Of a DNA stretch of 64,000 nucleotides, positions 4,484 through 27,995 are shown piece after piece. This DNA comes from Bacteroidota bacterium (lineage in GTDB: Bacteria > Bacteroidota > Bacteroidia > NS11-12g > UBA955). Numbering within the stretch: the first letter of the stretch is position 1; each line of letters begins with the position of its first letter. The translations under genes were made by a program, and so were the position numbers. The notes beneath the pieces are model-generated. The model saw only the letters and a program-made list of their open reading frames with translations, ran no database searches and had not been told where the DNA came from. The stretch is taken from positions 2,902-66,901 of the forward strand of contig JBKCJE010000076.1 of assembly GCA_046301955.1 (NCBI GenBank), given 5' to 3'.

Positions 4484-5307
4484 AACAGATAAAACAGTTT
4501 TTGATGTTGGGGGTGATGGTGTGCGTAGCCGCTGTTGATGCCCAAGTTAGCGAGAAAAAGTGGGGCAGTGTATTTACGATATCGGCGACCCCCGCGTGGT
4601 CAACCGGATGGATTACGGCCTATCAGCCAGATTTGCGTGGTGGTTACACAGAGGAACAACTTCGCGATTCATTTTCCCAAGCTGATCGCTCACTGCAAAC
4701 CGTAAACTTGAATTTGGCCTATTCGCGCAAGTTGAATGGCTTTACCAATTTTGTGTTCGGATTGAGTGTTGTGAACACCGGATTTACCCGTGTGAAAGAT
4801 GGTGAGATGTTTAAATATGTGATTCACCCAGACGTGGGTATTTACCCAAATTTGGTACAGGCTGGTTTGATGGAAGTACACTATGAGTTCCGTTCACAAT
4901 ACGCGGGTGCCTTGTTTGCCATTGAAAAGCGTTTGGATGGGGCTCGTTTTCAGATGCAATCGGCCAGTATGTGGTATCAGTTGGGTGTGATGCCGGCATT
5001 ATTGATGCGACAGGATCTACAAATTCATACAGTAGGATTTACCATGCCTCAAGGCAATGATTTTGCTGTGCCGGACTATGTTGCCAGCACCGTAGATACA
5101 GGTGTTGTCCTCACCCGTTCTTCTGCCGTTCGTGCGAATGCTTTCCTCACAGCTTCGATGCGTTTGGAATATAATTTGGATCCAGGGGTGCACATTTTTG
5201 CCTCTCCGAGGGTCATGTTGCCCATCTTGCCCAGTAACAGAGGGGTGCAAACGTATTGGTCGCCCCAGATTGGTGTGGAATTGGGATTGCGCATTCCGCT
5301 CGACTAA
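4480..5307 (+). CDS. Hypothetical secreted / outer-membrane protein
   Basis: ATG overlaps the MATE stop. N-terminal signal peptide (MLGVMVCVAAVDAQ). Beta-strand-like alternating pattern. No family recognised. Confidence 0.5.
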   Translation: MKQIKQFLMLGVMVCVAAVDAQVSEKKWGSVFTISATPAWSTGWITAYQPDLRGGYTEEQLRDSFSQADRSLQTVNLNLAYSRKLNGFTNFVFGLSVVNTGFTRVKDGEMFKYVIHPDVGIYPNLVQAGLMEVHYEFRSQYAGALFAIEKRLDGARFQMQSASMWYQLGVMPALLMRQDLQIHTVGFTMPQGNDFAVPDYVASTVDTGVVLTRSSAVRANAFLTASMRLEYNLDPGVHIFASPRVMLPILPSNRGVQTYWSPQIGVELGLRIPLD

Positions 5308-5337
5308 TATCCTTGTCCTTTTCTTGGTAATAGCGAT

Positions 5338-5376
5338 AAAAATGAGGGGGCGGCCAATGGCCGCCCCCTCATTTTT
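5338..5376. terminator. Bidirectional intrinsic terminator (perfect 18-bp arms, A-tract/T-tract flanks)
   Basis: AAAAATGAGGGGGCGGCC-aat-GGCCGCCCCCTCATTTTT lies between convergent genes (the 4480..5307 ORF on + and sdhB on -). Confidence 0.7.
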
Positions 5377-5398
5377 ATCATCTTGCTATGAATCGAAT

Positions 5399-6154
5399 TT
5401 ATTTGCCGTTCATTTTTGCCAAGATGTATTCGCGGTTCAAATTGGCAATTACACTCAATGGAATTTGCTTTGGACATTCCGCCGCACATGCACCGGTGTT
5501 CGTACAAGCACCGAAGCCCTCAGCATCCATTTGGTTCACCATGGCAACCACGCGGCTTTCGCGCTCTGGCTTACCTTGAGGCAACTTCGACAATTGGGTT
5601 ACTTTCGCACCCACAAACAACATCGCGGAGGCATTCTTGCAAGCGCTCACACACGCACCGCAACCAATACAAGTAGCCGCTTCAAACGCTTCGTCGGCCA
5701 CCTCTTTTGGAATCAATACCGAGTTGGCATCCACCGCGTTACCTGCGTTTGTAGAAATAAATCCACCTGAAGCAATGATGCGGTCAAACGCACTGCGGTT
5801 TACTGTCAAATCCTTGATTACAGGGAATCCATTGGCTCTCCAAGGTTCAACGGTAATGGTGTCACCGTCACTGAAGCTACGCATGTGTAACTGACAGGTG
5901 GTAACGCCTTGCTTCGGTCCGTGAGGACGGCCATCGATGACCATTGAACACATACCGCAAATACCCTCTCTGCAGTCGTGATCAAAAGCTACGGGCTCTT
6001 TCCCTGTTTCAATGAGTTGCTCGTTCAAGACATCGAACATTTCCAAAAAGCTCATATCAGGACTAGCATCCACTTTATATTCTTCAAAGTTACCGGCGCT
6101 GTTGGTGTTTTTTTGGCGCCATACTTTTAGGTTTAATTTCATTAACTTGCTCAT
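5399..6154 (-). CDS. sdhB: Succinate dehydrogenase/fumarate reductase iron-sulfur subunit
   Basis: Cluster motifs CREGICGMC (2Fe-2S), [11 protein letters not shown] (4Fe-4S) and [13 protein letters not shown]. Lies directly downstream of sdhA. Confidence 0.9.
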
Positions 6155-6172
6155 AACCTTTTTGTTATTGGA

Positions 6173-8149
6173 TTATTTGTAACTGCGTTGTTGGATTTTG
6201 ATGTTTTCGTATTTCAACTCGTCTTTGTGAAGTTCCCATGACGCGCCTTTGTTTTCCCAAGCGGCAACATACATGAATTTTTCATCGTCGCGCAAGGCTT
6301 CACCTTCCTCGGTTTGATATTCTTCGCGGAAGTGACCTCCACAGCTTTCGTTGCGGTCTAGTGCATCAACACACATCAATTCGCCCAATTCAAGGAAGTC
6401 GGCAACGCGACCTGCCTTGTCTAATTCGGGGTTGAATTCGTTGATTGATCCTGGGATACGAACGTTTTTGTAGAAATCTGCACGGAGGGCTTGAATTTCG
6501 GCAATGGCCTCTTTCAATCCTTTTTCGCTGCGGGCCATACCACACTTGTTCCACATGATCAATCCCAATTCGCGGTGGTAGCTTTCTACGCTACGGGTCC
6601 CTTGAATGTTCATCAACTGTTGGATGCGGTCGTGAGCCGCTTTTTCGGCAGCCACAAATGCTTCGTGGTCGGTAGAGATGGGCTTGGTATGAATTTCTTT
6701 GCTCAAGTAGTTACCAATGGTGATAGGAATCACAAAATAACCATCGGCCAAACCTTGCATCAAAGCAGAAGCTCCCAAGCGGTTGGCACCGTGGTCTGAG
6801 AAGTTGGCTTCTCCCAAGGCGTACATGCCTGGTACGTTGGTCATCAAATCATAGTCTACCCACAAACCACCCATGGTATAGTGCACTGCAGGGTAAATAC
6901 GCATTGGCACTTCATATGGATCTTCATCGGTGATCTGCTTGTACATATCGAACAAGTTTCCGTACTTTTCTTTGACAACTTCTTTACCTAGACGCATCAA
7001 GGTTTCGTCGTCTGGGTTGGCGATATTCAATTTGCTGGCTTCGGTTCTGCCATATTTCTGCATCATGTTGTATTTGAAATCCAAATACACGGCCATTTTG
7101 CTTTGGCCTACGCCATAGCCGGCATCGCAACGTTCTTTGGCTGCACGCGAAGCAATATCGCGTGGTACCAAGTTTCCGAAGGCAGGGTAGCGACGCTCGA
7201 GGTAGTAATCGCGTTCGTCTTCTGGAATATTGTTGGGGTGACGGTCGTCGTTTTGTTTTTTAGGAACCCAAATTCGTCCATCGTTACGCAGCGATTCACT
7301 CATCAATGTCAATTTGGATTGATAGTGTCCTGAAACGGGAATACAAGTTGGGTGGATTTGGGTGAAGCAGGGGTTGGCAAAATACGCACCCGCTTTATGG
7401 GCTTTCCAAGCAGCGGTTACGTTGCTACCCATCGCGTTGGTTGACAAGTAGAATACGTTGCCATATCCGCCGGTACATAATAACACCGCATGGCCGAAAT
7501 GTCGTTCTAGTTCTCCGGTTACGAGGTTCCTTGCGATAATTCCACGGGCTTTGCCATCAATTTTTACCACTTCGATCATTTCGTGGCGCGCATACATTTT
7601 TACATTGCCCAATCCAACTTGACGCTCTAAGCCGCTGTAGGCACCCAACAACAACTGTTGTCCTGTTTGTCCGGCCGCGTAGAAAGTGCGTTGAACTTGT
7701 GTACCACCGAAAGAACGGTTTGAAAGGGTTCCGCCATATTCACGGGCAAAGGGAACACCTTGGGCTACACATTGGTCAATGATCGAGGTAGAACACTCAG
7801 CCAAGCGATGCACATTGGCTTCGCGAGATCTGTAATCGCCTCCTTTGATGGTATCGTAGAACAAACGGTACACTGAGTCACCGTCGTTTTGGTAGTTTTT
7901 GGCGGCATTGATACCCCCTTGGGCAGCAATAGAGTGGGCGCGGCGGGGGCTATCTTGGAAGCAGAAGGCTTTAACTTTATAGCCCATTTCTGCTAGGGTA
8001 GCGGCTGCGCTGGCACCGGCCAAACCGGTACCCACCACGATGATTTCCAACTGTCTTTTATTGGCGGGGTTTACCAAAGGAACCGTGCTTTTGTACTGGG
8101 TCCATTTGGTGGCTATGTCGCCGGCTGGGATTTTTGATTCGAGTGTCAT
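6173..8149 (-). CDS. sdhA: Succinate dehydrogenase/fumarate reductase flavoprotein subunit
   Basis: FAD-binding [36 protein letters not shown] carries the covalent-FAD His. [10 protein letters not shown] is present. 658 aa. Confidence 0.95.
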
Positions 8150-17820: not shown

Positions 17821-18645
17821 TTATGGGTTAAATGAAGTCAATATTACGTTGTTTTCGAGGGTGAGTCCCACTTGGAATTCAGGCATCCAATCGGCGTCGT
17901 TGTTCACGGTTTTTACTTTCACGTGCGGTAGATGACCGTTCTCTACCATTCTCCGCGCATCCAAATAGAAGGATTTCAGCAATTCTTTTCTGGTTTTTTG
18001 CTGGGCGATGCTGGGCGATGGCCTGTCGTTTTGGGCGAGCACAATCGCTGATTTGTTGGGAGAAGGTTTGCGGGTATTCACGCTGTCGTTGATGTTGCGC
18101 ACTTTTCGAATGGGTTCAGTGGCTGCAATCAACGGGTGGATATCTTGTTTGTTGGGATTCTCTGTAACAGTGGATGTTGTTTCCCAAGTTTGTTTCTGCT
18201 GGGTTCGATCCACAAGGGTTGCAACGTTTTGCTTGGTTCCTTGACGATTGAGTGACGGTTTTGGTGGCGCTGATTCTGTGTTTGAAGGCGTTGTTATGTC
18301 AACCGAAGGACTTGTTTTTGCTATTTGTGATTGTATCGGGGCGATGTTCTGCGTGGCGATACTGGCTTTGAAGAACCACAGAATGACGAGGGAGGCCGCG
18401 ACCGACATCGAAGCATAGAACAGCACAGTGCGGTTGGAAGTCTTCTTTTTCAGCAACGGGGCATCGGGGTAAAGTGTGGTGGTAGGTTGCAAATAGGTTT
18501 GAGCCAAGGCCTCATAATGGGCTTTCAGATTGGCATCGCCGTGCATCGCTTGGTGTAATTCTGAGGCAGCCGTTTTGGATAAATTGCCTTCCAACAGTTC
18601 AAACAACTGCCACGCTTGCTCGTCGGTGATGGGAGATGGTTTCAT
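17821..18645 (-). CDS. Putative anti-sigma factor (single-pass membrane protein)
   Basis: ATG 18645 lies 5 nt after the ECF sigma stop. Cytoplasmic domain of ~60 aa, one TM helix (VLFYASMSVAASLVILWFF), an S/T/P/Q-rich linker and a small C-terminal domain. The call rests on position and topology only. Confidence 0.45.
   Translation of the reverse strand: MKPSPITDEQAWQLFELLEGNLSKTAASELHQAMHGDANLKAHYEALAQTYLQPTTTLYPDAPLLKKKTSNRTVLFYASMSVAASLVILWFFKASIATQNIAPIQSQIAKTSPSVDITTPSNTESAPPKPSLNRQGTKQNVATLVDRTQQKQTWETTSTVTENPNKQDIHPLIAATEPIRKVRNINDSVNTRKPSPNKSAIVLAQNDRPSPSIAQQKTRKELLKSFYLDARRMVENGHLPHVKVKTVNNDADWMPEFQVGLTLENNVILTSFNP
18001..18020. repeat. Perfect tandem duplication of a 10-mer (CTGGGCGATG x2) inside the anti-sigma CDS
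   Basis: Read directly: ctgggcgatgctgggcgatg. Confidence 0.9.
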
Positions 18646-18649
18646 GGTG

Positions 18650-19141
18650 TTAGATGAGGTTGTTGGGGTTGCCGATAATGTCTTTGAGTGCTTGTCGGCC
18701 ACGGAAGATATTCACCTTCACTTGGGCTTCGTTGAGTCCGGTGATTTCGCCGATTTCCGCATAGGAGTAGCCTTCGTAATCGCGCAGTAAAATCACGGTT
18801 CTTTGGATTTGACTGATTTGTGAGAGGGCTTTTTCCAAGGATTCCATCAGGCCGGTGTAGGCAGAGGCTTCGGTGGTGGGGTGTTTTGCGTGTGCTAAAT
18901 TGTGGATGTCTTCTGTGGGTTTTTGCGCGCGCCAGATGTCTACCATGCTGTGATAGGCCGTTGTGAACAGGTAGCTCTTTGCGGTGTCTATGTTTACAGT
19001 ATTGCGTTTCATCCAGAGTTTTTCGAAGGTTATTTGTACAATTTCTTTGGCGTCATCGGGGTTGCGTAACTGTTTGAGCGCGAATCGGAAAACCGCATTG
19101 CTGTGGAGATCCACGCACTTGTTATAATCCGATACCGTCAT
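18650..19141 (-). CDS. ECF-type RNA polymerase sigma-70 factor
   Basis: Region 2 (FTTAYHSMVDIWR) and region 4 HTH (GYSYAEIGEITGLNEAQVKVNIFRGRQAL). 163 aa. Confidence 0.85.
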   Translation of the reverse strand: MTVSDYNKCVDLHSNAVFRFALKQLRNPDDAKEIVQITFEKLWMKRNTVNIDTAKSYLFTTAYHSMVDIWRAQKPTEDIHNLAHAKHPTTEASAYTGLMESLEKALSQISQIQRTVILLRDYEGYSYAEIGEITGLNEAQVKVNIFRGRQALKDIIGNPNNLI

Positions 19142-19184
19142 GCAGCTGTTTGTTAATACGCGAAAGGGATGCCAAAAGTTACAT

Positions 19185-19192
19185 TACCTTTG
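19185..19192 (+). promoter_or_regulatory. -7 promoter box TACCTTTG for the methyltransferase gene
   Basis: TAnnTTTG 21 nt upstream of ATG 19214 and downstream of the track start 19169. Confidence 0.45.
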
Positions 19193-19213
19193 ATAAATAA
19201 TTTGAAAGTGGGT

Positions 19214-19939
19214 ATGGAATGGTTTGAATCTTGGTTTGATACGTTGTACTATCACGCCCTTTATCAGCATCGCAACGATGCCGAGGCTGCGGCGTTTATG
19301 GATCGATTGTTGGCGCATTTGAAACTTGATTCTGGGATGAGGGTTTTGGATGTGGCTTGCGGCAAAGGTAGGCATAGTGCGCATTTGGCCTCGAGGGGTT
19401 TGCGGGTTTGCGGGTTTGATTTGAGTGAGAACAGCATCGGCATCGCGAAGGGCTTGGGTGTGGAAGGGGCTGAGTTTTTGGTTCATGATATGCGACAGCC
19501 GTTTCCGGTTTCGGGGATGGATGCGGTTTTCAATGTGTTTACATCATTTGGGTATTTCGACGATCCGGCCGAGGATGCTCAAGTATTGAAAAACATGGCA
19601 GCGGCATGCAGACCGGGCGGTTATGTGGTGCAGGATTATTTGAATGCAGTGTCTGTGCTTGATGATTTGCCGCAAGAGGCTGCTTTGGAGCGCGGGGGCT
19701 ATGGATTTAAAACGCGAAAACATCGTACAGAAAGCCACATCGTGAAGGACATTGCGGTTACCGATGGCGATCAAACGCATGTGTTTCAAGAGCAAGTGAG
19801 GATTTTCGACTCTGAAACGCTACTGAAATTGCATGTTCAGGCCGGCCTGCAGGTGGTGGATGTGTTTGGCGACGACCAATTGGGTGCGTTTGATGCGAAA
19901 ACTTCGCCCCGCATTGTGGTGATTTCCAAGAAAAGTTGA
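19214..19939 (+). CDS. Class I SAM-dependent methyltransferase
   Basis: SAM motif I is VLDVACGKGRHS. The start was moved to MEWFESWFD because the promoter box lies inside the longer track ORF. Confidence 0.8.
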   Translation: MEWFESWFDTLYYHALYQHRNDAEAAAFMDRLLAHLKLDSGMRVLDVACGKGRHSAHLASRGLRVCGFDLSENSIGIAKGLGVEGAEFLVHDMRQPFPVSGMDAVFNVFTSFGYFDDPAEDAQVLKNMAAACRPGGYVVQDYLNAVSVLDDLPQEAALERGGYGFKTRKHRTESHIVKDIAVTDGDQTHVFQEQVRIFDSETLLKLHVQAGLQVVDVFGDDQLGAFDAKTSPRIVVISKKS

Positions 19940-19951
19940 TATTCGCTATTG

Positions 19952-20521
19952 ATGTTGTTTGTTTTAGATTTTTTTGATCGCGATTTGTTTGTGTTGATCA
20001 ACCAGCGATGGGCCAGTCCTGCATTGGATCCCATGATGATTTTTTTGAGCAGTAAGTGGGCGTTTGTGCCATTGTACGCGGTGTTTGTTTGGTTATTTTG
20101 GCGAAAGTTTGGCGTGAAATGCTGGGTGCCGATTTTGCTCACAGTGGCGTCTTTTGGGTTGGCAGATAGCATCAGTTCGAAAATTTGTAAACCCATGTTT
20201 GCCAGGGTGAGACCGGCTTGGGAAAGTTCGCTGAATCCGCGATTGCCCGATGGACCTCCGGGCAGCAGGTTTGGCTTTGTGAGTAGTCATTCTGCCAATT
20301 CTTTTGCTGTTTTTTCAACGGCGATGATGTTGTTGGGTTTGGGCCGACGGTGGCGATTGGGTTTGATGTATTTGGCATCGGCGATAGCGTATTCAAGGGT
20401 TTATTTGGGGGTGCATTATGTGGGCGATGTGTTTTTTGGCGCTTTGCTGGGGTTGGGTATCGCTTATGGGCTGCTGTGGTTGTATCGAAATTGGTTATCG
20501 CCTCGCATGGAGCATGGATAG
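19952..20521 (+). CDS. PAP2-family phosphatase (undecaprenyl-diphosphatase-like)
   Basis: Three PAP2 motifs are present: KPMFARVRP (Kx6RP), FVSSHSANSF, and SRVYLGVHYVGD (SRx5Hx3D). Membrane protein. Confidence 0.8.
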   Translation: MLFVLDFFDRDLFVLINQRWASPALDPMMIFLSSKWAFVPLYAVFVWLFWRKFGVKCWVPILLTVASFGLADSISSKICKPMFARVRPAWESSLNPRLPDGPPGSRFGFVSSHSANSFAVFSTAMMLLGLGRRWRLGLMYLASAIAYSRVYLGVHYVGDVFFGALLGLGIAYGLLWLYRNWLSPRMEHG

Positions 20522-21513: not shown

Positions 21514-22452
21514 TTATTTCACGTCAGCCCAAACAGCGTTGATCAAGAACCAAGGCTTGGTTGGGTTGTCGGTTACTTTTCTCCAAACGGCTACAACCAC
21601 ACCAGTGTTGGCAGGGTTCCAGCTCCACCAAGGCAAACCGAAAGACGCATATTTGTCTTTCACCGCTTGAGGGATTGCAGAGTAAGTCCAAGAAAGGGAC
21701 TTTTCAACTTCAGCGTTTGCAGCAGGGCTGCTCATGATAGCAGAAGTAGAGAACGCAACTGGCTTGCCAGTAGCATCAGCTTGAGCAGATGCACGAATGA
21801 TGTGCTCGTGGTCCATGGCAACGTCGCCAGCACCTGAAACAGTTTGTAATGCGTTTACTTTCTTTTCAGCAACGAATACAGATACGTAGTAGTCACCAGC
21901 CTCAGGAGCAAATGCCTTCAATTTGTATTTGATGTTCAAAGTCTGTCCGCTAGCAGTAGCACTTGCAGCAACACCTACCTCAGCAGTAGCTTGGTTCGCA
22001 TTCACAGATGCAGCTTCGATGTCGGTAGCCTTTACTGAACTAGTTCCCAACAAAGAGTTGTTCAACCAGAAAGAAGGGATAGAGTACTGACCTTGAGCGT
22101 TGATGTTAGATACAGTCGTCAACAATTCAAAAGAGAAAGGCGCGATGAACAAAGTGTCATTATTTGGCTTCATCCACAAAGGAACCAACTTAGAAGAGTT
22201 AGAAGAATGGTAGTCAACGGCAACGATGTTGTCAGGGTTGGCGTTAGTTACCAATTTCTTGAACTCAGGCATGGCGTAAAGACCGCAAGGTCCACACCAA
22301 GTAGCAGTGTGATACACAACGAATGAACGCTGTTTGTTGGTCACGGTCAAAGAAGCTCCGCCGTTACCGCCATCTGGACTGTCGGGCTTACAGCTCTGCA
22401 TTATTCCCGCAAAACTTGCAGCAACAACGGCCAAAAGAAGTAATTTTTTCAT
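21514..22452 (-). CDS. Thioredoxin-motif (WCGPC) lipoprotein, otherwise uncharacterised
   Basis: Signal peptide with Cys (AGIMQSC). VVYHTATWCGPCGLYAMPEF is a canonical thioredoxin active site. The C-terminal ~200 aa carry no recognised motifs. Confidence 0.6.
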   Translation of the reverse strand: MKKLLLLAVVAASFAGIMQSCKPDSPDGGNGGASLTVTNKQRSFVVYHTATWCGPCGLYAMPEFKKLVTNANPDNIVAVDYHSSNSSKLVPLWMKPNNDTLFIAPFSFELLTTVSNINAQGQYSIPSFWLNNSLLGTSSVKATDIEAASVNANQATAEVGVAASATASGQTLNIKYKLKAFAPEAGDYYVSVFVAEKKVNALQTVSGAGDVAMDHEHIIRASAQADATGKPVAFSTSAIMSSPAANAEVEKSLSWTYSAIPQAVKDKYASFGLPWWSWNPANTGVVVAVWRKVTDNPTKPWFLINAVWADVK

Positions 22453-22577: not shown

Positions 22578-24083
22578 ATGTCAGGGGTCATCGCCAAGAA
22601 TAGTTTTTGGGCTTCCATTGTGAATTACAGTGGTAGTTTGGTTGGCCTATTTACTACCTTTTACTTGTTTCCGTTGGTGTTTACTACCAGCGAGAATGGG
22701 GTTTTTCGCCTCTTTATCGAAATGGGGGCCCTGCTGGCAGGCGTTGCTCAATTGGGTACGGGATATTCCATTTGGAAGTTTTTTCCTCGGTTTAAGAGTG
22801 AAGACGGACATCATGGCGCCGGATTTTGGTTATTGGCCATTCCGCTCGTTGGGTTTGTTTTTGTAGCGCTTTTGTTGTTGTGGGGTCAGCCGTGGGTGGT
22901 TAAATATTTGATTGAGAACAGTTCCGATTTTCTGCCGTATTACCACTGGCTTATTCCATTTGTATTTTTCTTTGTTTTCAATACGGTTTTTGAGATTTTC
23001 CTGGCGGCCCTGGGCAACATTGTCTTTTCCTCGTTCTTGCGAGAAAATGTGGTAAGAATCCTGCTAGGGCTTTTGGGTTGGTGTTACTACATCGGCGTGG
23101 TAAATTTTGACCAAACCATGTATTCGATTTCCGCGGTTTACGGGGTCGTAATGCTCTTAAATTTTGTGTATTTGCTCAAGAATACGCGGTTGAGTTTTCA
23201 GCCCAATATGGGATTTATTCGCGAGCAAGAGGGACTTAAGGGCGAGTTTTATCGCTATACGGGTTACTTGTTTTTGACATATGTGGCGATGTTGGTTTTG
23301 CAACGCATGGATTTTTTGATGGTGAGTTCAATGAAGGGATCTGCGGATACAGGGATTTACGCCATCGCGGTGAATATGGCCGTTTTAATTGAAATTCCTA
23401 CGCGCAGTATTTTGCAAATTGCCAATCCCAAATTGTCAGAGGCCATTCATGCCGGTGATGATAAGGAAATTAAGCGCCTATATCAAAAAACCAGCCTCAA
23501 CCAATTCATTTTGGGCGCACTGGCGCTGCTGCTGATTTGGATCAATATCGATGTGTTTTATCACTACATGCCCAATGGACATCTTTATGAAACCGGTAAG
23601 TGGGCGGTGTTTTACCTTGGCGTGGGCAAATTGTGTGTGTTGTTGCAAGGCAATTCTTCTGCAATGCTTATTTTTTCGAAGCGATATTATTTGTCACTGC
23701 TGATCAATGGAATTTCTATTGTCGTTGGTGTTCTTCTCAATCAATATTTGATTCCTATTTATGGCATCAACGGCGCGGCATTGGCCACGGGCGGTGTTTG
23801 GTTGGCTTCGGGCATTGTGATGGCTGTGTTGATATATTCCGTATATGGTATGCAGCCCATCACGCGTGGAATATTAACGAGCGTTTTACTATTTGCGGGA
23901 TTGTTTTTACTCAACCACCTTTGGCCGGTGAATTCGAATTTCTTGTTGATTGGATCTTTGGGTAAATCGCTACTATTGATGGGTACAGCGATGTTCATTC
24001 TGCTGCGTTTCAGGTTGAGCGATGACGTCTACAGCATGGCCAAGAAAATGTTGGCACCCATTGGTATTCGGTTGAAAGACTAA
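22578..24083 (+). CDS. Oligosaccharide/polysaccharide flippase (Wzx, MOP superfamily)
   Basis: 501 aa with ~12-14 hydrophobic helices. The pattern is typical of polysaccharide-biosynthesis flippases (GIYAIAVNMA..., GINGAALATG). Converges on the nonulosonic-acid operon. Confidence 0.75.
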   Translation: MSGVIAKNSFWASIVNYSGSLVGLFTTFYLFPLVFTTSENGVFRLFIEMGALLAGVAQLGTGYSIWKFFPRFKSEDGHHGAGFWLLAIPLVGFVFVALLLLWGQPWVVKYLIENSSDFLPYYHWLIPFVFFFVFNTVFEIFLAALGNIVFSSFLRENVVRILLGLLGWCYYIGVVNFDQTMYSISAVYGVVMLLNFVYLLKNTRLSFQPNMGFIREQEGLKGEFYRYTGYLFLTYVAMLVLQRMDFLMVSSMKGSADTGIYAIAVNMAVLIEIPTRSILQIANPKLSEAIHAGDDKEIKRLYQKTSLNQFILGALALLLIWINIDVFYHYMPNGHLYETGKWAVFYLGVGKLCVLLQGNSSAMLIFSKRYYLSLLINGISIVVGVLLNQYLIPIYGINGAALATGGVWLASGIVMAVLIYSVYGMQPITRGILTSVLLFAGLFLLNHLWPVNSNFLLIGSLGKSLLLMGTAMFILLRFRLSDDVYSMAKKMLAPIGIRLKD

Positions 24084-24087
24084 TGAA

Positions 24088-25031
24088 TTAGTTTTTTTGG
24101 GAGAACTGTCCAAAGAAATCGCCCAGGCTCATTCGATCGAATGCATCTACGTAGCCACCTTCGGTTAGATTGATTACCTTCTTGTGGATGTGTTTTGCGT
24201 AGCGCGATGTTTCATCGTAACCCGTGTGCACTTTTACCAAACTATGAAACAATTCGTGGAGGCGAATCTTACCGGTTGTGCCATCCGCTTCTTGTTTCAA
24301 TAAAGGGTGTTTTTTGTTCTCGTCAGCATAAAAATGCGATTCAGTACGGATTATGGTGTTATCGGTGTCCACCATGATGTTGATGTGGAAGTCGTGATCC
24401 ACCCCGGTGATGAACACTTCCTCAAATCCTGAAAGCATCGCATTGAAAATGCATGAATTGACCACGTTTTCGCATTGTGGACTGCCCAAACGCCATTGGT
24501 ACATTCGGTTGCGGAAACCCGCTGTGCCGCCGATAACTGTGTAGTTGTAAGTGACGAATTGGATGTTGGGGTTGTTTAGGTTGTTAACGATATAGCAATT
24601 GCGGTACAGTTGGGGTACAAAGAAAATCATGGGCCAATCCACTTTTTGAAGCGCCTGCCATGTTTCATTGATCATTCGCTGTGTCTTTTCGAAGTCGGGT
24701 TTGTATTGTGCGATAGGATGCAAACCTGGATTCTCGAAAACCGCTTTTGAGAATTCGAAAAAATACAGATCTAACATCAAGTAATACTTGGGTTTCAGGC
24801 TGAAAAATTCGGGCTGACAGCTGAACTTGTTCACGGCAAAAAAGGCCAAACCCTGTTTTTTTAAGTTGTCGATTCCCACAGATGTGCATTTGTCGATGAA
24901 AGACCGTGCTGATGGTCCGTTGGCAATCACAACCACCGATTTTTCAGGTGCTGTATACGATGGGAGGTTGATCTTGCTCTTCAGCAGGATTTTTCCCATG
25001 GTGAGTGCCGATTGGAACAGGTCTTTTAACA

Positions 25032-25032
<1 letters not shown>
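24088..25032 (-). CDS. Putative nonulosonic-acid (sialyl/KDN) transferase, uncharacterised GNGPS-motif family
   Basis: The ATG at 25032 overlaps the stop of the HAD phosphatase gene by 1 nt. VVVIANGPSARSF, FFAVNKF and VFITGVDHDF resemble the AGNGPS, CNQFYF and YLSGIDFY blocks of Cst-type GT42 sialyltransferases and of DUF115/Maf proteins. That comparison is from memory and no alignment was run. Confidence 0.45.
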
Positions 25033-25556
<524 letters not shown>

Positions 25557-26606
25557 TTATGAAAGATGTTGGGGGTAAACAATTTCATCGGCCGGTATCT
25601 TGGTAACGGCTTTTTTGCCCACCACTTTTTCCAATTCATGCCATTTGAAACCATCTCCGGGAGAAAGCAAGTGCAAATCAGCTTCTTGGATCACTTCGCC
25701 AACTTGAATCTCGCGATTGGTGGCGATAGAGCGTTCCAATTTGTGCTTTGCAGAAACCGTTGATTCCGCAATAAATACATCTTCAACACCCATGGATCGC
25801 TCAATCAAACGAATGTCTCGAACCATGCGTTGAATACCTTCTACACCCAAAGAACCGGCTTGGTCTGTGCCTTTCATGCGGCGGTCTAAGGTGATGTGTT
25901 TCTCTACGATTTTGGCCCCCATGGCCACAGCGGACACAGGTGCACTGATGCCCACAGTGTGGTCTGAGTACCCGATATTATACCCAGGATATTTGTTCTG
26001 CAATGCTTTGATGGAAAGCAAGTTGGTATTTTCGGGTCGCGTAGGATATTCCGAAACACAATGCAATATGGAAATGTTGTTGTGGTATCGTGTAATGGTG
26101 GCCAACGCATCGTCGATTTCTTTGTATCCACCCATTCCAGTTGATAGGATGATGGGGATTTGGGTTTCGGCCAATGCACTCAACAAGGGTAAATTGGTTA
26201 AATCGCGACTGGCAACTTTCAATCGGTCGGGCATGAAATATTTGGTCATGCTCAAGCAGCCCACTGCACACAGCGTTTCCACGAAATCCAACCCATGGGA
26301 TTTTGCGTATTGGTATAACTCAAAATGCTGTTCGTCGTTCAATTCCAATTTCTCCCGATGCTCTCCATAGGTCTTGCCAAAAGAGTGGGGTGAGTTGTAT
26401 TCGCGCGACATTTGGGAGGCGGAAAGTTCCTGCGACAAATCCCGTTTTGTGAGTTTCACGGCGTCCATTCGAGGAAGGTCCAAATCGAATAAGTCGTCTT
26501 TTACCGGCCTTGCTGCTGCATCAATGATGAGCTTGGCAATGTCTACGGAACCGTTGTGGTTCTGTCCGATTTCTCCAATGATATAGGTGTGCTGATGCTG
26601 CTGCAT
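25557..26606 (-). CDS. neuB: NeuB-family nonulosonate synthase with SAF domain, NANS-like (9-phosphate-forming) subtype
   Basis: YIIGEIGQNHNGSVDIAKLII. The SPHSFGKTYGEHREKLEL block resembles animal sialate-9-P synthase. SDHTVGISAPVSAVAMGAKIVEKHITLD is present, and a C-terminal SAF domain. Confidence 0.9.
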   Translation of the reverse strand: MQQHQHTYIIGEIGQNHNGSVDIAKLIIDAAARPVKDDLFDLDLPRMDAVKLTKRDLSQELSASQMSREYNSPHSFGKTYGEHREKLELNDEQHFELYQYAKSHGLDFVETLCAVGCLSMTKYFMPDRLKVASRDLTNLPLLSALAETQIPIILSTGMGGYKEIDDALATITRYHNNISILHCVSEYPTRPENTNLLSIKALQNKYPGYNIGYSDHTVGISAPVSAVAMGAKIVEKHITLDRRMKGTDQAGSLGVEGIQRMVRDIRLIERSMGVEDVFIAESTVSAKHKLERSIATNREIQVGEVIQEADLHLLSPGDGFKWHELEKVVGKKAVTKIPADEIVYPQHLS

Positions 26607-26610
26607 GCGA

Positions 26611-27351
26611 TTATTTTTGGTATTTGTTGATTTGATTTTCCATCAAAGTTACCCAACTTTTTTCACTTAGTAGCAGATTTCGCTGTGCGGGAAAGTCCAA
26701 ATGGGCAAGCTGTGGGTAGGTGCTGAGGCAAAAGTTCCAATCGTCTTGATCATCGATTGTGAGTCGGATTTGTTCAAATTGCGGTTGCCAGTCTTCTGGG
26801 ATGGCCAAGATGGCTATGGCGTATTGGTTTGGATTTTCATACAAACCGATGGTGACATGTTCATTGTACCAGGGGTTATTTTTTGGCACAAGCGATTGCA
26901 GTGCTGCGACTTTTACCGCCTCTACAAAAATGCCTGTGTGGTGTTTGATACCGGGTTTGCCTGCGTAACCGAATGAAATGTAATCCATCGTTGGGCGTAT
27001 TTCGCAGGCGGCCAAGGTTTGGTCAATGATGTAATGACTGAGATAGGGGTTGTCGGCACAAATGCGAAGCACAAAATCGTTTTCTGCGATACCAAAATGG
27101 GCTGCTGCTTCGGTGAAGCGACTCAGTACATGGGTCTCATCGCCCCGAAAAACGGAAATGCCGTGACGTTCTGCCATTTGAGCGAGTGAATCATCCGCGG
27201 GTTGTTTTGTCGTGAGGAGTACAGGGGTTACATCGTGGCTTGCAAGCCGAGCAATGACGGCCTCCAGCAAGGTTTTCCCATCCGGTAACAGCATGGCCAT
27301 TTTGCCGGGTAATCGCGAAGAACCCATACGGGCTTGGATGAACGCGTACAT
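26611..27351 (-). CDS. SpsF-type cytidylyltransferase (putative CMP-nonulosonate synthetase)
   Basis: The track start is TTG 27360. ATG 27351 gives MYAFIQARMGSSRLPGK (COG1861/SpsF-type motif). The promoter box at 27358 supports the ATG. Confidence 0.75.
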   Translation of the reverse strand: MYAFIQARMGSSRLPGKMAMLLPDGKTLLEAVIARLASHDVTPVLLTTKQPADDSLAQMAERHGISVFRGDETHVLSRFTEAAAHFGIAENDFVLRICADNPYLSHYIIDQTLAACEIRPTMDYISFGYAGKPGIKHHTGIFVEAVKVAALQSLVPKNNPWYNEHVTIGLYENPNQYAIAILAIPEDWQPQFEQIRLTIDDQDDWNFCLSTYPQLAHLDFPAQRNLLLSEKSWVTLMENQINKYQK

Positions 27352-27357
27352 GATTTT

Positions 27358-27365
27358 CAAAGGTA
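27358..27365 (-). promoter_or_regulatory. -7 promoter box TACCTTTG for the nonulosonic-acid operon (near-leaderless spacing)
   Basis: Minus-strand TAnnTTTG ends 6 nt before ATG 27351. Confidence 0.5.
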
Positions 27366-27422
27366 AAGAAAATCGAGGTTGCTGAAGTTCGGGGGATGTC
27401 GTTTCTTTGCGACCACTACATT

Positions 27423-27995
27423 ATGCTGAATCTGATCATTTTTGGCCCTCCGGGTGCGGGCAAAGGTACCCAAAGCGAAAAATTGTTGAGCAAATACCAG
27501 TTGCAACACATTTCTACTGGCGATTTGTTGCGCGCTGAGCGTAATGCTGGCACCGAATTGGGCAATCAAGCCAATGAGTTTATTGCCAAGGGGGAGTTGG
27601 TTCCCGATGCAGTGGTTATTGGCATGGTGAAGAATTTCATGTTGGCACATCCTGAAGCCAATGGTTTTATTTTTGACGGGTTTCCCCGCACCACGCCGCA
27701 AGCGGATGCTTTGGATGTGATGTTGGCCGATTTTAACACGGGAATTTCTATTGTGTTGGGCTTGGAAGTAAACGAAGATGAATTGGTGAAACGCCTGTTG
27801 TTGCGTGGACAAAGCAGTGGTAGAGCGGATGATCAAGACGAATCAACCATTCGCAATCGTTTTCAAGAATACCAAAACAAAACCTTGCCATTGCAGGGGT
27901 ACTATCAAGCGCAGGGTAAATATCACGGCGTGATGGGTATCGGTGAAGTGGAAGATATTTTTGGGTCGTTGTGCGCCCACATCGAAGCCCTCTAA
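27423..27995 (+). CDS. adk: Adenylate kinase
   Basis: Trimmed to MLNLIIFGPPGAGKGTQ (P-loop). Short lid type. 190 aa. Confidence 0.95.
   Translation: MLNLIIFGPPGAGKGTQSEKLLSKYQLQHISTGDLLRAERNAGTELGNQANEFIAKGELVPDAVVIGMVKNFMLAHPEANGFIFDGFPRTTPQADALDVMLADFNTGISIVLGLEVNEDELVKRLLLRGQSSGRADDQDESTIRNRFQEYQNKTLPLQGYYQAQGKYHGVMGIGEVEDIFGSLCAHIEAL

Follow-up and report, generated by a model that had tools for sequence, protein, structure and literature searches.

A stand-alone GT42/Maf-like protein closing a KDN operon of a freshwater Bacteroidota bacterium as a candidate CMP-KDN-dependent glycosyltransferase

The final gene of a four-gene KDN operon in a freshwater Bacteroidota bacterium encodes a protein that is, judging from its sequence, a candidate stand-alone GT42/Maf-like catalytic domain of the PF01973 superfamily, and we put at about two in three the probability that it works as an inverting, CMP-KDN-dependent glycosyltransferase on a glycan built elsewhere, a reading for which we infer the donor, the acceptor and the catalytic base. 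The gene lies in the 64-kb stretch of DNA that was analysed (hereafter the window), whose relevant features are collected in Table 1. Bacterial nonulosonic-acid transferases are far less known than the corresponding biosynthetic enzymes (PMC5420450). No cognate or dedicated KDN transferase of bacteria is named in PMC6200933 or PMC9000132 or emerged from our literature searches, which likewise returned no biochemical characterisation of any member of the target's subfamily.

The junction between the target and the gene upstream of it reads GGGTGATGTTA, base 25032 being common to the TGA of the HAD phosphatase (25034-25032) and the ATG of the target (25032-30), and the two genes are translationally coupled. 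An in-frame GTG is found one codon 5' of this ATG, and the gene callers, on identical contigs, choose the ATG. Along the operon the successive genes are separated by 4 nt, by 9 nt and by this 1-nt overlap. A first-pass annotation made from the letters of the window had described the one-base overlap, the last place of the gene in its operon and the lack of a transmembrane segment or signal peptide; all of this holds, since the convergent gene ends 4 nt from the target's stop codon, the Kyte-Doolittle mean over 19 residues does not exceed 1.26 and the N-terminus is predicted to form a helix. It is equally true that the target is the sole glycosyltransferase-like gene of the module: no glycosyltransferase domain was detected among the window ORFs examined, for which Pfam was run on all five proteins of the module and on 20 of the remaining ORFs that reach 220 aa, and the precomputed gene calls of identical contigs were consulted over about 14-34 kb. 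Among these ORFs there was also no other glycan-assembly gene or initiating transferase, and no flagellar gene was seen among those scanned. A scan for sigma-70 promoters and terminators, which is uninformative for Bacteroidota, yielded fewer sites than shuffled sequence and none within the operon.

The three genes preceding the target are of the same type as those of the CMP-KDN pathway of Bacteroides thetaiotaomicron, which comprises the phosphatase BT1713, the KDN-9-P synthase BT1714 and a CMP-KDN synthetase (PMC6200933). The operon has a phosphatase, which passes the BT1713-based equivalog model, a NeuB-family synthase and a CMP-synthetase, and it contains no NeuC, epimerase or other ManNAc-forming gene, which is the composition expected of a B. 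thetaiotaomicron-type module. The NeuB-family protein scores under the NeuB and PseI equivalog cutoffs and is presumably the KDN-9-P synthase, and the CMP-synthetase, for which the start chosen by the gene callers gives 246 aa, shows weak KdsB-family matches. The Wzx-type protein has no Pfam match of its own; its homologues carry PF01943/PF13440 and are annotated as O-antigen export or oligosaccharide flippase proteins. As to the Omp28-like lipoprotein, its gene and the Wzx gene keep their synteny in most of the close loci having that flank assembled, and its membership of the module is uncertain.

Table 1. Features of the target gene and its neighbourhood (window coordinates)
Feature	Position	Strand	Basis or remark
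Omp28-like lipoprotein, 312 aa	21514..22452	-	PF11551, 36.3 bits
Divergent Wzx-type oligosaccharide flippase, 501 aa, multi-TM	22578..24083	+	PF01943/PF13440 of homologues, hydropathy, synteny
Target, candidate CMP-KDN-dependent glycosyltransferase, 314 aa	24088..25032	-	ORF and start/stop overlap
C-terminal conserved block, residues 288-300, NLTEGGYVDAFDR	24133..24171	-	consensus N-x-S-x-x-S-Y-I-D-A-F-E-R
SHFY, residues 232-235, after G-x-D	24328..24339	-	near-invariant H-F-Y
Strand and G-x-D motif, residues 203-215, FEEVFITGVDHDF	24388..24426	-	aligned with Cst-II YKEIYLSGIDFY
Second strand, residues 64-77, FFAVNKFSCQPEFF	24802..24843	-	N68 aligned with N31 of the Cst-II 'CNQF' block
GNGPS loop and beta-strand, residues 33-45, VVVIANGPSARSF	24898..24936	-	aligned with Cst-II IIAGNGPSL
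KDN-9-phosphate phosphatase (HAD, KdsC-like)	25032..25547	-	NCBIfam NF058599 equivalog, 264.6 bits against a cutoff of 180; PF08282
NeuB-family nonulosonate(-9-phosphate) synthase with SAF domain	25557..26606	-	PF03102, E = 4e-64; PF08666
CMP-nonulosonate synthetase (cytidylyltransferase), operon gene 1	26611..27360	-	PF02348 CTP_transf_3, E = 2e-16

The first-pass annotation took the target for an orphan that might found a family of its own, a label that we reject: a word-indexed search gave 21 related clusters, and exhaustive phmmer gave 1238 representatives (50% clustering, E <= 1e-3), 809 of them at E <= 1e-10. Flavobacteriales, Cytophagales and Bacteroidales/Muribaculaceae all contain relatives, and a Roseburia (Firmicutes) genome supplied a distant match; PF01973 is recognised in 89 of the 92 relatives that were sampled (E < 0.1, best E = 1.6e-13) and, as a precomputed match, on many close homologues. 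The target itself scores 20.3 bits against PF01973 (E = 5e-4), short of the gathering threshold (34.6), and matches over residues 135-216 only. When the PDB sequences were searched with a family profile of the 92 sequences, the significant matches (E < 0.01) were to GT42 only, that is Cst-I (2p2v, E = 3.1e-4) and six distinct Cst-II sequences (E = 1e-3 to 3.5e-3), and one unrelated chain appeared at E = 2; the same search with the target alone or with a 20-sequence profile gave nothing useful, the larger profile alone reaching GT42. With hhalign, the family aligned with Cst-II (a sequence identical to 1RO7) at a probability of 96.5% and E = 7e-10 over 146 columns (target 31-215, Cst-II 2-157), and with a 26-sequence GT42 profile at 96.4%; in the profile search and in hhalign the GNGPSL, (C/V)N.F and G.D elements fall in register with those of Cst-I/II. 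The GT42 family PF06002 did not match the target at E <= 1 or any of the 92 relatives at E <= 0.1; genuine GT42 proteins all carry PF06002, and some also match PF01973. Taken together, the profile comparisons show the N-terminal ~185 residues to be homologous to GT42 and PF01973. The likeness to Cst-I/II and to DUF115/Maf proteins remarked upon at first pass is therefore confirmed by the Cst-I, hhalign and PF01973 scores, and the companion view that the remainder of the sequence is unrelated has to be given up, given the extent of the hhalign alignment and the share of relatives recognised by PF01973.

Three motifs had been singled out at first pass, and they are both correctly placed (VVVIANGPSARSF at 33-45, FFAVNKFSCQPEFF at 64-77, FEEVFITGVDHDF at 203-215) and conserved in the 92-sequence family alignment, whose mean column identity is 29%; these matches go beyond chance. 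The residues N38, G39, P40 and S41 of the GNGPS loop, which presumably binds the nucleotide (CMP), are kept in 90-91 sequences. N68 and P81 are invariant (92/92), and the LKPxYYLMLD stretch after the second strand brings D88 (86/92), which is aligned with N51 of Cst-II. G210 is again found in all 92 sequences, with D212 in 83 and H213 in 80, and the G-x-D strand marks the end of the core common to PF01973, where the target's own PF01973 match stops. Conserved blocks also occur beyond these three, at H233-F234-Y235 (90/92, 87/92 and 84/92) and, in the C-terminal block that follows a long helix (258-281), at N288 and D296 (each 92/92), R300 being kept in 76/92. It is tempting to propose H233 as a candidate general base and Y235 as a candidate phosphate ligand. 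Y235 was paired with Y162 of Cst-II in one hhalign run, the lid alignment being unstable between runs, and the SHFY region has the lowest confidence in the structure model from a shallow MSA. In GT42 the lid terminates in the catalytic His (His188 in Cst-II, His202 in Cst-I; for the role of His188 see PMC4202792). When the C-terminal halves were aligned with hhalign, the non-conserved K254 or L265 came to lie opposite H188 of Cst-II, and no conserved His of the target family was found opposite it in this lid alignment, which varies between runs. The C-terminal helix and strand align weakly with Cst-II 193-215, at a score of 20.7 against 8-14 in 30 column-shuffled controls.

A further argument comes from the comparison of gene neighbourhoods. 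Among 17 close loci from GTDB, that is those with homologues at >=37% identity in a genome scan with a 20-sequence alignment, a NeuB-family gene is present in 15 and the Wzx gene stands alongside in 15. Two of these loci (L022 and L023) have a Wzx protein 86-87% identical to that of the window, together with, on L022 only, an Omp28-like protein at 94%; their cassette comprises a NeuB 32% identical to that of the window, a different CMP-synthetase and an extra methyltransferase, and their homologue of the target is 41-42% identical. A third locus (L013) has the same backbone identity as these two, with the Omp28-like lipoprotein again at 94%, and carries the cassette type of the window and a homologue that is 85% identical. 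Three further loci (L024-L026) contain a legionaminic-acid cassette (LegB, NeuC-like, PtmE-like) and homologues at 37-39% identity. L006 encodes a complete Pse pathway (PseB, C, F, G, I), its homologue being fused to a PseH-like GNAT domain, and in two Spirosoma loci (L083 and L089, the latter from Spirosoma oryzae DSM 28354) the homologue lies 4 nt upstream of PseB-PseC-...-PseF-PseG-PseI. The Wzx gene is kept beside every cassette type, and in an NJ tree the homologues cluster according to NulO type. The homologue thus co-varies with the type of NulO pathway, be it a KDN variant, legionaminic or pseudaminic, across related genomes. One reasonable inference is that the KDN, Leg and Pse cassettes share just one step for which no other gene is a candidate, namely CMP-NulO transfer, and the earlier argument that the target is the logical user of the CMP-sugar gains strength from this co-variation and from the NeuB-family genes of the close loci. 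The association is looser further out. At one locus (L021), where the homologue is 53% identical, the Wzx gene is present and no NulO gene occurs within 10 kb. Among distant homologues (<=32% identity, mostly Muribaculaceae/Bacteroidales) a NeuB-family gene lies within 10 kb in 7 of 63, a count that comes from single-sequence phmmer, which is too insensitive for the distant Muribaculaceae clade; of the loci spot-checked in that clade, one was a CPS locus and two had mostly housekeeping genes around them. The homologue of the cultured Duncaniella muris DSM 103720 (L072) lies in a CPS locus.

Two AF2 models of the target were obtained, a first one from a shallow MSA (pLDDT 87.3) and a second one with pLDDT 96.1 and pTM 0.93, and Foldseek matched them at a probability of 1.00 to PF01973 structures only, the Maf glycosyltransferase 5mu5 and the MptE kinase 8sd5. 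The first model brought up Maf 5mu5 at the top (E = 7.5e-6, TMt 0.23) and MptE 8sd5 in second and third place; with the second and better model the Maf match was lost and the chains 8sd5_C and 8sd5_B led (E = 7e-4 to 8e-4, TMt 0.38-0.42). Over both models MptE was matched at E = 4e-4 to 8e-4 with a probability of 1.00. Foldseek TM-scores, at 0.28-0.42, are low and the order of the matches changes from one model to the other; neither Cst-I nor Cst-II is among the top 50 PDB matches of either model. Of the comparisons proposed at first pass, that by profile relates the family to Cst-II (96.5% in hhalign), and that by fold returns PF01973 structures without GT42. The first-pass reading only half escapes the refutation set for it, as Foldseek finds MptE as readily as Maf. 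Since it retrieves transferase and kinase alike, structure alone cannot part the two; genomic context does.

The target could accordingly be read as an MptE-like kinase or pyrophosphokinase that drives an ATP-dependent phosphorylation of a sugar or pterin-type substrate, and such a reading can point to the name of the Pfam family, which is taken from MptE, to the lead of the M. jannaschii HPPK (MptE) chains 8sd5_C/8sd5_B with the high-confidence model, and to the GxGPS-type loop, which binds nucleotides and by itself would not distinguish CMP from ATP. We nevertheless consider it very improbable. The family profile has no match to 8sd5 at E <= 10 yet finds GT42 at about E = 1e-3; MptE measures about 215 aa, whereas the target continues for ~100 residues past the G-x-D motif, and the helix and strand of this extra part align weakly with Cst-II, scoring better than the shuffled controls. 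MptE is, moreover, an archaeal pterin enzyme (PMC12506659), while the target is coupled to CMP-KDN synthesis and its homologues occur within cassettes for Leg and for Pse. The neighbours of the target include no gene for pterin or folate, moa/moe being >23 kb away. To our knowledge, the KDN, Leg and Pse pathways need no extra kinase. Hardly more probable, in our opinion, is a role as a non-transferase accessory, whether as a regulator or chaperone that binds CMP-NulO, as a hydrolase of CMP-NulO or as a substitute for a pathway enzyme such as the nucleotide-sugar hydrolase PseG. It is suggested by the L006 homologue, whose PseH-like GNAT partner is joined to PseG in the PseG-PseH fusion of another locus (L007), and by the fact that the function of the target is argued from homology and context only. 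L006 has a separate PseG-like protein (TIGR03590, E = 7e-32) besides PseB, C, F and I and hence a full pathway, for which reason we rejected the PseG analogue; the KDN pathway includes no nucleotide-sugar hydrolase step (PMC6200933), the positions shared with GT42 fall in the donor-binding core, and the family retains polar residues, besides the invariant H-F-Y, of the kind expected in an active enzyme.

A further departure from our reading would keep the target as a NulO transferase and change its substrates: its donor might not be KDN-specific, it might transfer directly to protein (Ser/Thr), for instance to the Omp28-like lipoprotein, or it might polymerise KDN. Relatives give some grounds for this, Maf being promiscuous, as flagellin receives both Neu5Ac and Kdo on Ser/Thr from CbMaf and GkMaf (bioRxiv 10.1101/2020.06.03.131540), and Cst-II being bifunctional (PMC4202792); the window ORFs examined include no further glycosyltransferase or initiating transferase, the Omp28-like lipoprotein is syntenic, and the distant family members with no NulO gene nearby could use housekeeping CMP-Kdo. 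We regard it as unlikely all the same, because the sequence of the homologue tracks the type of cassette even on a near-identical backbone, which argues for a donor-specific adaptation. The presence of a Wzx flippase beside every cassette type favours a route through a lipid-linked oligosaccharide, and the target, with 314 aa where 5mu5 has 632 aa, is without the additional domains by which Maf binds its acceptor.

Among characterised enzymes, Cst-I and Cst-II (GT42, PF06002; PDB 2P2V, 1RO7) share with the target the N-terminal nucleotide-sugar-binding core (GNGPS, (C/V)N.F, and G-x-D with the preceding helix), the order of elements (core, variable lid, long helix, strand, C-terminal segment), a size of about 260-315 aa, the absence of a DXD motif and a position beside CMP-NulO synthesis genes. 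They differ in that the target lacks both a PF06002 match and a GT42 match in Foldseek, has a longer and unlike lid with beta-hairpins (219-255), and belongs to a family with an invariant H233-F-Y and no conserved His placed opposite His188 in the varying lid alignments; its presumed donor is KDN rather than Neu5Ac, its host a member of the Bacteroidota, and its route Wzx-linked rather than sialylation of the LOS outer core. In Maf the PF01973 domain adopts a modified GT-A fold akin to that of Cst-II, and Maf enzymes take Neu5Ac and Kdo from CMP donors; the M. magneticum enzyme has E324 and D415 as catalytic acidic residues, and a conserved Ser (bioRxiv 10.1101/2020.06.03.131540). Maf (Maf_flag10/PF01973; PDB 5MU5; CbMaf, GkMaf) resembles the target in its Pfam superfamily, in leading the Foldseek matches of the first model, in its CMP-activated NulO/Kdo donors and in the location of its genes beside NulO biosynthesis; it is, however, a multi-domain enzyme (632 aa for 5mu5) acting on Ser/Thr of flagellin, whereas the target consists of one domain of 314 aa and stands in a non-flagellar setting with a Wzx neighbour, its family profile does not match the 5mu5 sequence, and the fold match disappears with the better model. 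MptE (archaeal 6-hydroxymethyl-7,8-dihydropterin pyrophosphokinase, PDB 8SD5) has the PF01973 fold in common with the target; it differs by an identity of about 10%, no sequence-profile match, ~100 aa less, an archaeal pterin pathway and a wholly different genomic context. Functional analogues within the phylum are the Pse/Leg transferases Tanf_01245/TFUB4_00887 of Tannerella forsythia, which lie directly downstream of the CMP-NulO genes, are strain-specific to the NulO type and supply the NulO that caps a Wzx-dependent protein O-glycan; these proteins of 442-445 aa are GT-B/TagB-like with D/E-D/E-G and HP motifs, so that their fold and sequence are unrelated to the target (PMC5420450), and the idea that they are Maf-like was rejected on that ground.

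We return to transfer of KDN as the preferred reading, under which the target would be an inverting glycosyltransferase with a GT42/Maf-like (PF01973) fold, independent of metal and either soluble or peripherally associated with the membrane. The upstream enzymes would convert Man-6-P and PEP to KDN-9-P, KDN and finally CMP-KDN. On the cytoplasmic side of the membrane, the target would hold CMP-KDN with its GNGPS loop, N68, D88 and the strand bearing G210-x-D212, and the lid-like segment (about residues 213-257) would shut over the donor. KDN would then be moved onto a hydroxyl group of a glycan whose assembly is encoded elsewhere in the genome, probably an oligosaccharide linked to undecaprenyl, and the KDN-bearing product would be flipped by the adjacent Wzx. 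In this scheme CMP-KDN as the donor, the inversion giving an alpha-KDN linkage, the attachment of the acceptor to a lipid and the part played by Wzx are all putative, as are the roles of H233 and Y235.

It is quite possible, though we advance it only tentatively, that the target is the first dedicated bacterial KDN transferase and gives a handle on a family (>1200 clusters at 50% identity) of stand-alone GT42/Maf-like proteins serving as the cognate transferases of interchangeable cassettes (KDN, methylated-KDN-type, legionaminic and pseudaminic) at one adk-wzx locus of freshwater Bacteroidota, with a donor specificity set by the divergent lid, a family that would merit its own place in CAZy. 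If the target is a KDN transferase, it would offer a compact and soluble catalyst for KDN glycosides. If our reading is true, more than 1000 Bacteroidota proteins now called 'hypothetical' or 'MptE-like', those of gut Muribaculaceae included, would receive a functional label, and the target would connect, in sequence space, the sialyltransferases of GT42 with Maf enzymes and MptE kinases. Finally, the swapping of cassettes at one locus amounts to a natural experiment on the evolution of donor specificity and on the diversification of surface glycans in abundant freshwater bacteria.

The candidate CMP-KDN-dependent glycosyltransferase studied here (hereafter, the target) closes a tightly packed operon, whose genes are separated by gaps of 4 nt and 9 nt and then by a 1-nt overlap; at this last junction (GGGTGATGTTA), base 25032 is common to the phosphatase TGA and the target ATG. 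The first-pass annotation had described the last place in the operon, the shared base, three sequence motifs and a protein without transmembrane segment, and had seen in the target the sole glycosyltransferase-like gene of its module. The ORF, junction, operon, motif and window checks confirmed all these factual parts: the motifs sit at residues 33-45, 64-77 and 203-215, the highest Kyte-Doolittle 19-residue mean (1.26) reveals no hydrophobic segment, and no glycosyltransferase domain was found among the other window ORFs examined. Outside the module, the 64-kb window carries housekeeping genes (sdhA, dnaJ, icd, feoB, ahcY and a gyrB/parE-like gene), together with molybdenum-cofactor genes and T9SS cargo proteins. 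Near the module lie an ECF sigma factor with a putative anti-sigma partner, a SAM methyltransferase and a PAP2 phosphatase (18650-19141 / 17821-18702 (-); 19169-20521 (+)), whose gene order is conserved wherever the flanks of close loci are assembled (L001-L003, L005); the Omp28-like lipoprotein gene keeps its synteny with the convergent gene in the majority of close loci whose assembly covers that flank, and its product may be either a glycoprotein acceptor or unrelated to the module. The target gene is 100% identical to its counterpart in a Columbia River Bacteroidota MAG, and its close relatives come from freshwater Flavobacteriales and Bacteroidota MAGs.

Features of the target module and its flank (window numbering)
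Feature	Coordinates	Strand	Remarks
Target	24088..25032	-	314 aa; ORF; fourth and last operon gene
CTP_transf_3 cytidylyltransferase	27360-26611	-	Pfam domain; operon gene 1
NeuB-family synthase with SAF domain	26606-25557	-	operon gene 2
HAD phosphatase, KDN-9-phosphate phosphatase equivalog	25547-25032	-	NF058599 (NCBI), 264.6 bits vs cutoff 180
Convergent multi-TM gene	22578-24083	+	501 aa; ends 4 nt from target stop codon
Omp28-like lipoprotein	21514-22452	-	312 aa; CGPC motif; syntenic with Wzx gene

The target had also been regarded as an orphan and as the candidate founding member of a family, and neither term survives database searches. A word-indexed search returned 21 clusters with identity down to 24%, while exhaustive phmmer against 1.84 billion representatives retrieved 1238 proteins at E <= 1e-3 (809 at E <= 1e-10), almost all of 280-310 aa and aligning end to end with the target; a large family is thus already present in databases. 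An alignment of 92 sequences (mean column identity 29%) yields the consensus ILGNGPSL ... CVN.F ... LKP..Y...DP ... QNV ... GADHSWH ... HFY ... N.S..SYIDAFER, in which N68, P81, G210, N288 and D296 are invariant and N38, G39, P40, S41, D88, N189, D212, H233, F234 and Y235 nearly so. The alignment shows the three motifs to be the core that a genuine family conserves, and this family holds further conserved blocks beyond them.

The resemblance to the sequence blocks of Campylobacter Cst-I and Cst-II (family GT42) proposed at first reading is well founded. When the 92-sequence profile was run against all PDB sequences, seven of the eight matches were GT42 sialyltransferases, the only ones with E < 0.01 (Cst-I 2p2v, E = 3.1e-4; six Cst-II entries, E = 1e-3 to 3.5e-3), the eighth being an unrelated 79-residue chain (E = 2); GNGPSL, (C/V)N.F and G.D were in register in these alignments. 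With hhalign, the family matched Cst-II (a sequence checked to be identical to 1RO7) with Prob 96.5% and E = 7e-10, target residues 31-215 lying on Cst-II 2-157, and, along the first 56 columns, matched a 26-sequence GT42 profile with Prob 96.4%; the alignments with GT42 pair N68 with Cst-II N31, D88 with Cst-II N51 and D212 with Cst-II D154. The GT42 Pfam model PF06002 was matched by none of the 92 members, and NCBIfam has no model for the target. Its sole Pfam match is PF01973 (MptE-like, formerly DUF115/Maf_flag10), sub-threshold for the target itself (E = 5e-4, 20.3 bits, cutoff 34.6) and found in 89 of the 92 members (best E = 1.6e-13). Several genuine GT42 proteins (P0304, P0324, P0335, P0370, P0399, P0403) also carry precomputed PF01973 matches, a direct sequence-level overlap of the two Pfam families, and the PF01973 domain of Maf is described as having a modified GT-A fold that is Cst-II-like at the donor site (bioRxiv 10.1101/2020.06.03.131540). 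On these grounds, GT42, Maf, MptE and the target family make up one superfamily.

Structure prediction led to the same superfamily. From 20 sequences AF2 built a good model (pLDDT 87.3, weakest at 210-260), and from 92 an excellent one (pLDDT 96.1, pTM 0.93), in which an N-terminal helix is predicted to precede a Rossmann-like alpha/beta core closing at strand 205-209 and G-x-D, followed by a beta-hairpin-rich segment (219-255), a long helix (258-281), a strand (285-288) and a C-terminal helix. Only PF01973 structures reached Foldseek probability 1.00 against the PDB: with the first model, the Maf glycosyltransferase 5mu5 (E = 7.5e-6, TMq 0.42) and then the MptE HPPK 8sd5 (E = 4e-4). Of these, 8sd5 alone was left with the better model (E = 7e-4 to 8e-4), a point for the rival reading of an MptE-like kinase. 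Foldseek thus confirms the superfamily and does not divide glycosyltransferase from kinase, and its ranking is unstable between models. We consider a kinase very improbable. The region that follows G-x-D, which MptE (~215 aa) largely lacks, aligns weakly with its GT42 counterpart, yet above controls (hhalign score 20.7 vs 8.2-13.8 for 30 column-shuffled controls); this signal stems from the helix-strand part (target ~272-295 on Cst-II ~193-215). Cst-I and Cst-II were absent from the Foldseek top 50 with either model, so that the Foldseek comparison with Cst-II suggested by the first-pass annotation came out negative; this is real evidence against the simple claim that the target is a GT42 enzyme. 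The lid aligned inconsistently between hhalign runs, Y235 facing the invariant GT42 Y162 in one of them, and no conserved histidine stood opposite His188, the GT42 base (PMC4202792), in any run; H233 is the obvious candidate for this role.

Genomic context, the DISCRIMINATING evidence, was compared across 80 GTDB loci. Among the 17 loci with a homologue of at least 37% identity, 15 contain a NeuB-family gene and 15 a Wzx flippase gene, and in every case the cassette is bounded by adk and wzx. The convergent 501-aa protein of the window had no Pfam or NCBIfam match; its homologues, named O-antigen export protein or oligosaccharide flippase, carry PF01943/PF13440 (PF01943 being found at 30-60% identity), which identifies it as a divergent Wzx, and it represents a flippase clade that standard annotation misses. 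Locus L013 shares with the window both the backbone (Wzx 87%, Omp28-like lipoprotein 94%) and the KDN cassette (NeuB 92%), and the identity of its homologue is 85%. The backbone of L022 and L023 is equally close to that of the window (Wzx 86-87%; lipoprotein 94%, L022 only), but their cassette differs: a SAM methyltransferase is present, NeuB is short and only 32% identical, the cytidylyltransferase is PseF-like, and there is a second KDN-9-P-phosphatase equivalog (254 bits). Their homologue reaches just 41-42%. The NeuB of the L022 cassette (4862-7990) has 314 aa and no SAF domain, and the product may be a methylated KDN-type sugar; O-methyl-KDN is known in the Sinorhizobium K-antigen. At ~60% Wzx identity, homologues are 57% identical in loci with a KDN cassette (L005, L018, L019), 37-39% with a legionaminic-acid (Leg) cassette (L024-L026: LegB above cutoff, NeuC-type epimerase, PtmE-like NTP-transferase with CBS domain) and 33% in L006, where the pseudaminic-acid (Pse) pathway is complete (PseB, PseC, PseF and PseI exceed equivalog cutoffs, and a PseG-like gene is present). 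A neighbor-joining tree likewise groups homologues by type of nonulosonic acid (NulO). As homologue identity follows cassette type and not backbone, the target gene is part of an exchangeable NulO cassette rather than of the conserved backbone.

The site between adk and the divergent wzx appears as a hot-spot (window 22578-27995; L022 3533-10407; L024 3056-12930; L006 2129-10844) where four cassettes (KDN, methyltransferase-bearing KDN variant, Leg-type and Pse-type) sit on near-identical backbones, and each cassette brings a diverged target-family gene of its own. The MAG JAHEMG01 (Flavobacteriales Ww67; L014 and L022) holds both a window-type KDN cassette (homologue 83%) and the variant (42%), which could reflect strain heterogeneity, mis-binning or two loci in one genome. 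Within the Pse operon of L006 (6691-8079), a PseH-like GNAT is joined to the C-terminal side of the target-family domain, giving a predicted transferase-acetyltransferase of 462 aa; P0018 is a second such fusion protein. The separate PseG of L006 rules out the domain as a PseG substitute. In L083 and in the cultured Spirosoma oryzae DSM 28354 (L089), just 4 nt separate the homologue from a downstream PseB-PseC-...-PseF-PseG-PseI series, after which comes a Wzx gene.

KDN, Leg and Pse cassettes share a single component without an assigned step, the target family, and the only step common to these pathways without a gene is sugar transfer from CMP-NulO. A predicted CMP-KDN-dependent transferase is accordingly our best explanation for the target, at a probability of about 0.65; the kinship first proposed thus stands, and so does the likely role, as a prediction, both stripped of the orphan and founder labels. 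We give little credence to a non-transferase accessory protein, and the remaining likelihood falls to other donors or acceptors for a transferase. The predicted mode of action is like that of a GT42 or Maf enzyme. The target nevertheless falls outside GT42, with no PF06002 match, no GT42 structure in the Foldseek top 50 and, in the inconsistent lid alignments, no aligned catalytic histidine; outside Maf proper, being a single domain with no flagellar context among the window ORFs scanned; and outside MptE, from which it differs in size and context and to which the family profile has no sequence match. Its best placement is in an uncharacterised, stand-alone subfamily within the PF01973/GT42-like superfamily. 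A limited literature search, to be read as absence of evidence, found no paper on this subfamily or on a dedicated bacterial KDN transferase.

As a CMP-KDN-dependent transferase, the target would use the product of the three upstream enzymes, which would operate a B. thetaiotaomicron-type route (Man-6-P + PEP -> KDN-9-P -> KDN -> CMP-KDN; PMC6200933). CMP-KDN would bind in the GNGPS / N68 / D88 / G-x-D pocket, and segment 213-257 may close on it in the manner of the Cst-II lid, which closes upon CMP binding (PMC4202792). The acceptor hydroxyl, deprotonated by a base (candidate H233), would attack C2 with inversion, and an undecaprenyl-linked oligosaccharide would gain KDN, probably terminal, ahead of flipping by Wzx. 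Such an acceptor is suggested by the conserved adjacent Wzx, and it must be built elsewhere since no other glycosyltransferase or initiating transferase occurs among the window ORFs examined. The donor, the stereochemistry, the base, the acceptor and the link to Wzx each rest on inference. The Tannerella O-glycan, with its terminal Pse or Leg, is formally similar to the proposed KDN, although its transferases are unrelated GT-B enzymes (PMC5420450).

Distant members fit this context less well. In the distant clade (<= 32% identity; 63 loci, mostly Muribaculaceae and other Bacteroidales), a NeuB-family gene lies within 10 kb in 7 loci; the Duncaniella muris homologue is the first gene of a UGDH-Wzx-EpsG-GT4-GT2 polysaccharide locus, and two more loci are chiefly housekeeping, yet L027 has PtmE-like and PseF-like genes nearby. 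L021 (53% identity) keeps Wzx and has no NulO genes within 10 kb. Distant members might use housekeeping CMP-Kdo as donor, rely on NulO genes elsewhere or do something different; Maf enzymes can use CMP-Kdo (bioRxiv 10.1101/2020.06.03.131540). Next to a distant homologue (27% identity) in Roseburia sp. (L008/L009 6368-12199), NeuB is absent and a DegT aminotransferase, a hexapeptide acetyltransferase, a CTP_transf_3 gene, an HMGL-like aldolase and a split TPP enzyme form an unusual CMP-linked pathway. Family members are carried by the cultured strains Duncaniella muris DSM 103720 (L072 9962-17103) and Spirosoma oryzae DSM 28354 (L089 9839-17000), which makes the family accessible to genetics.
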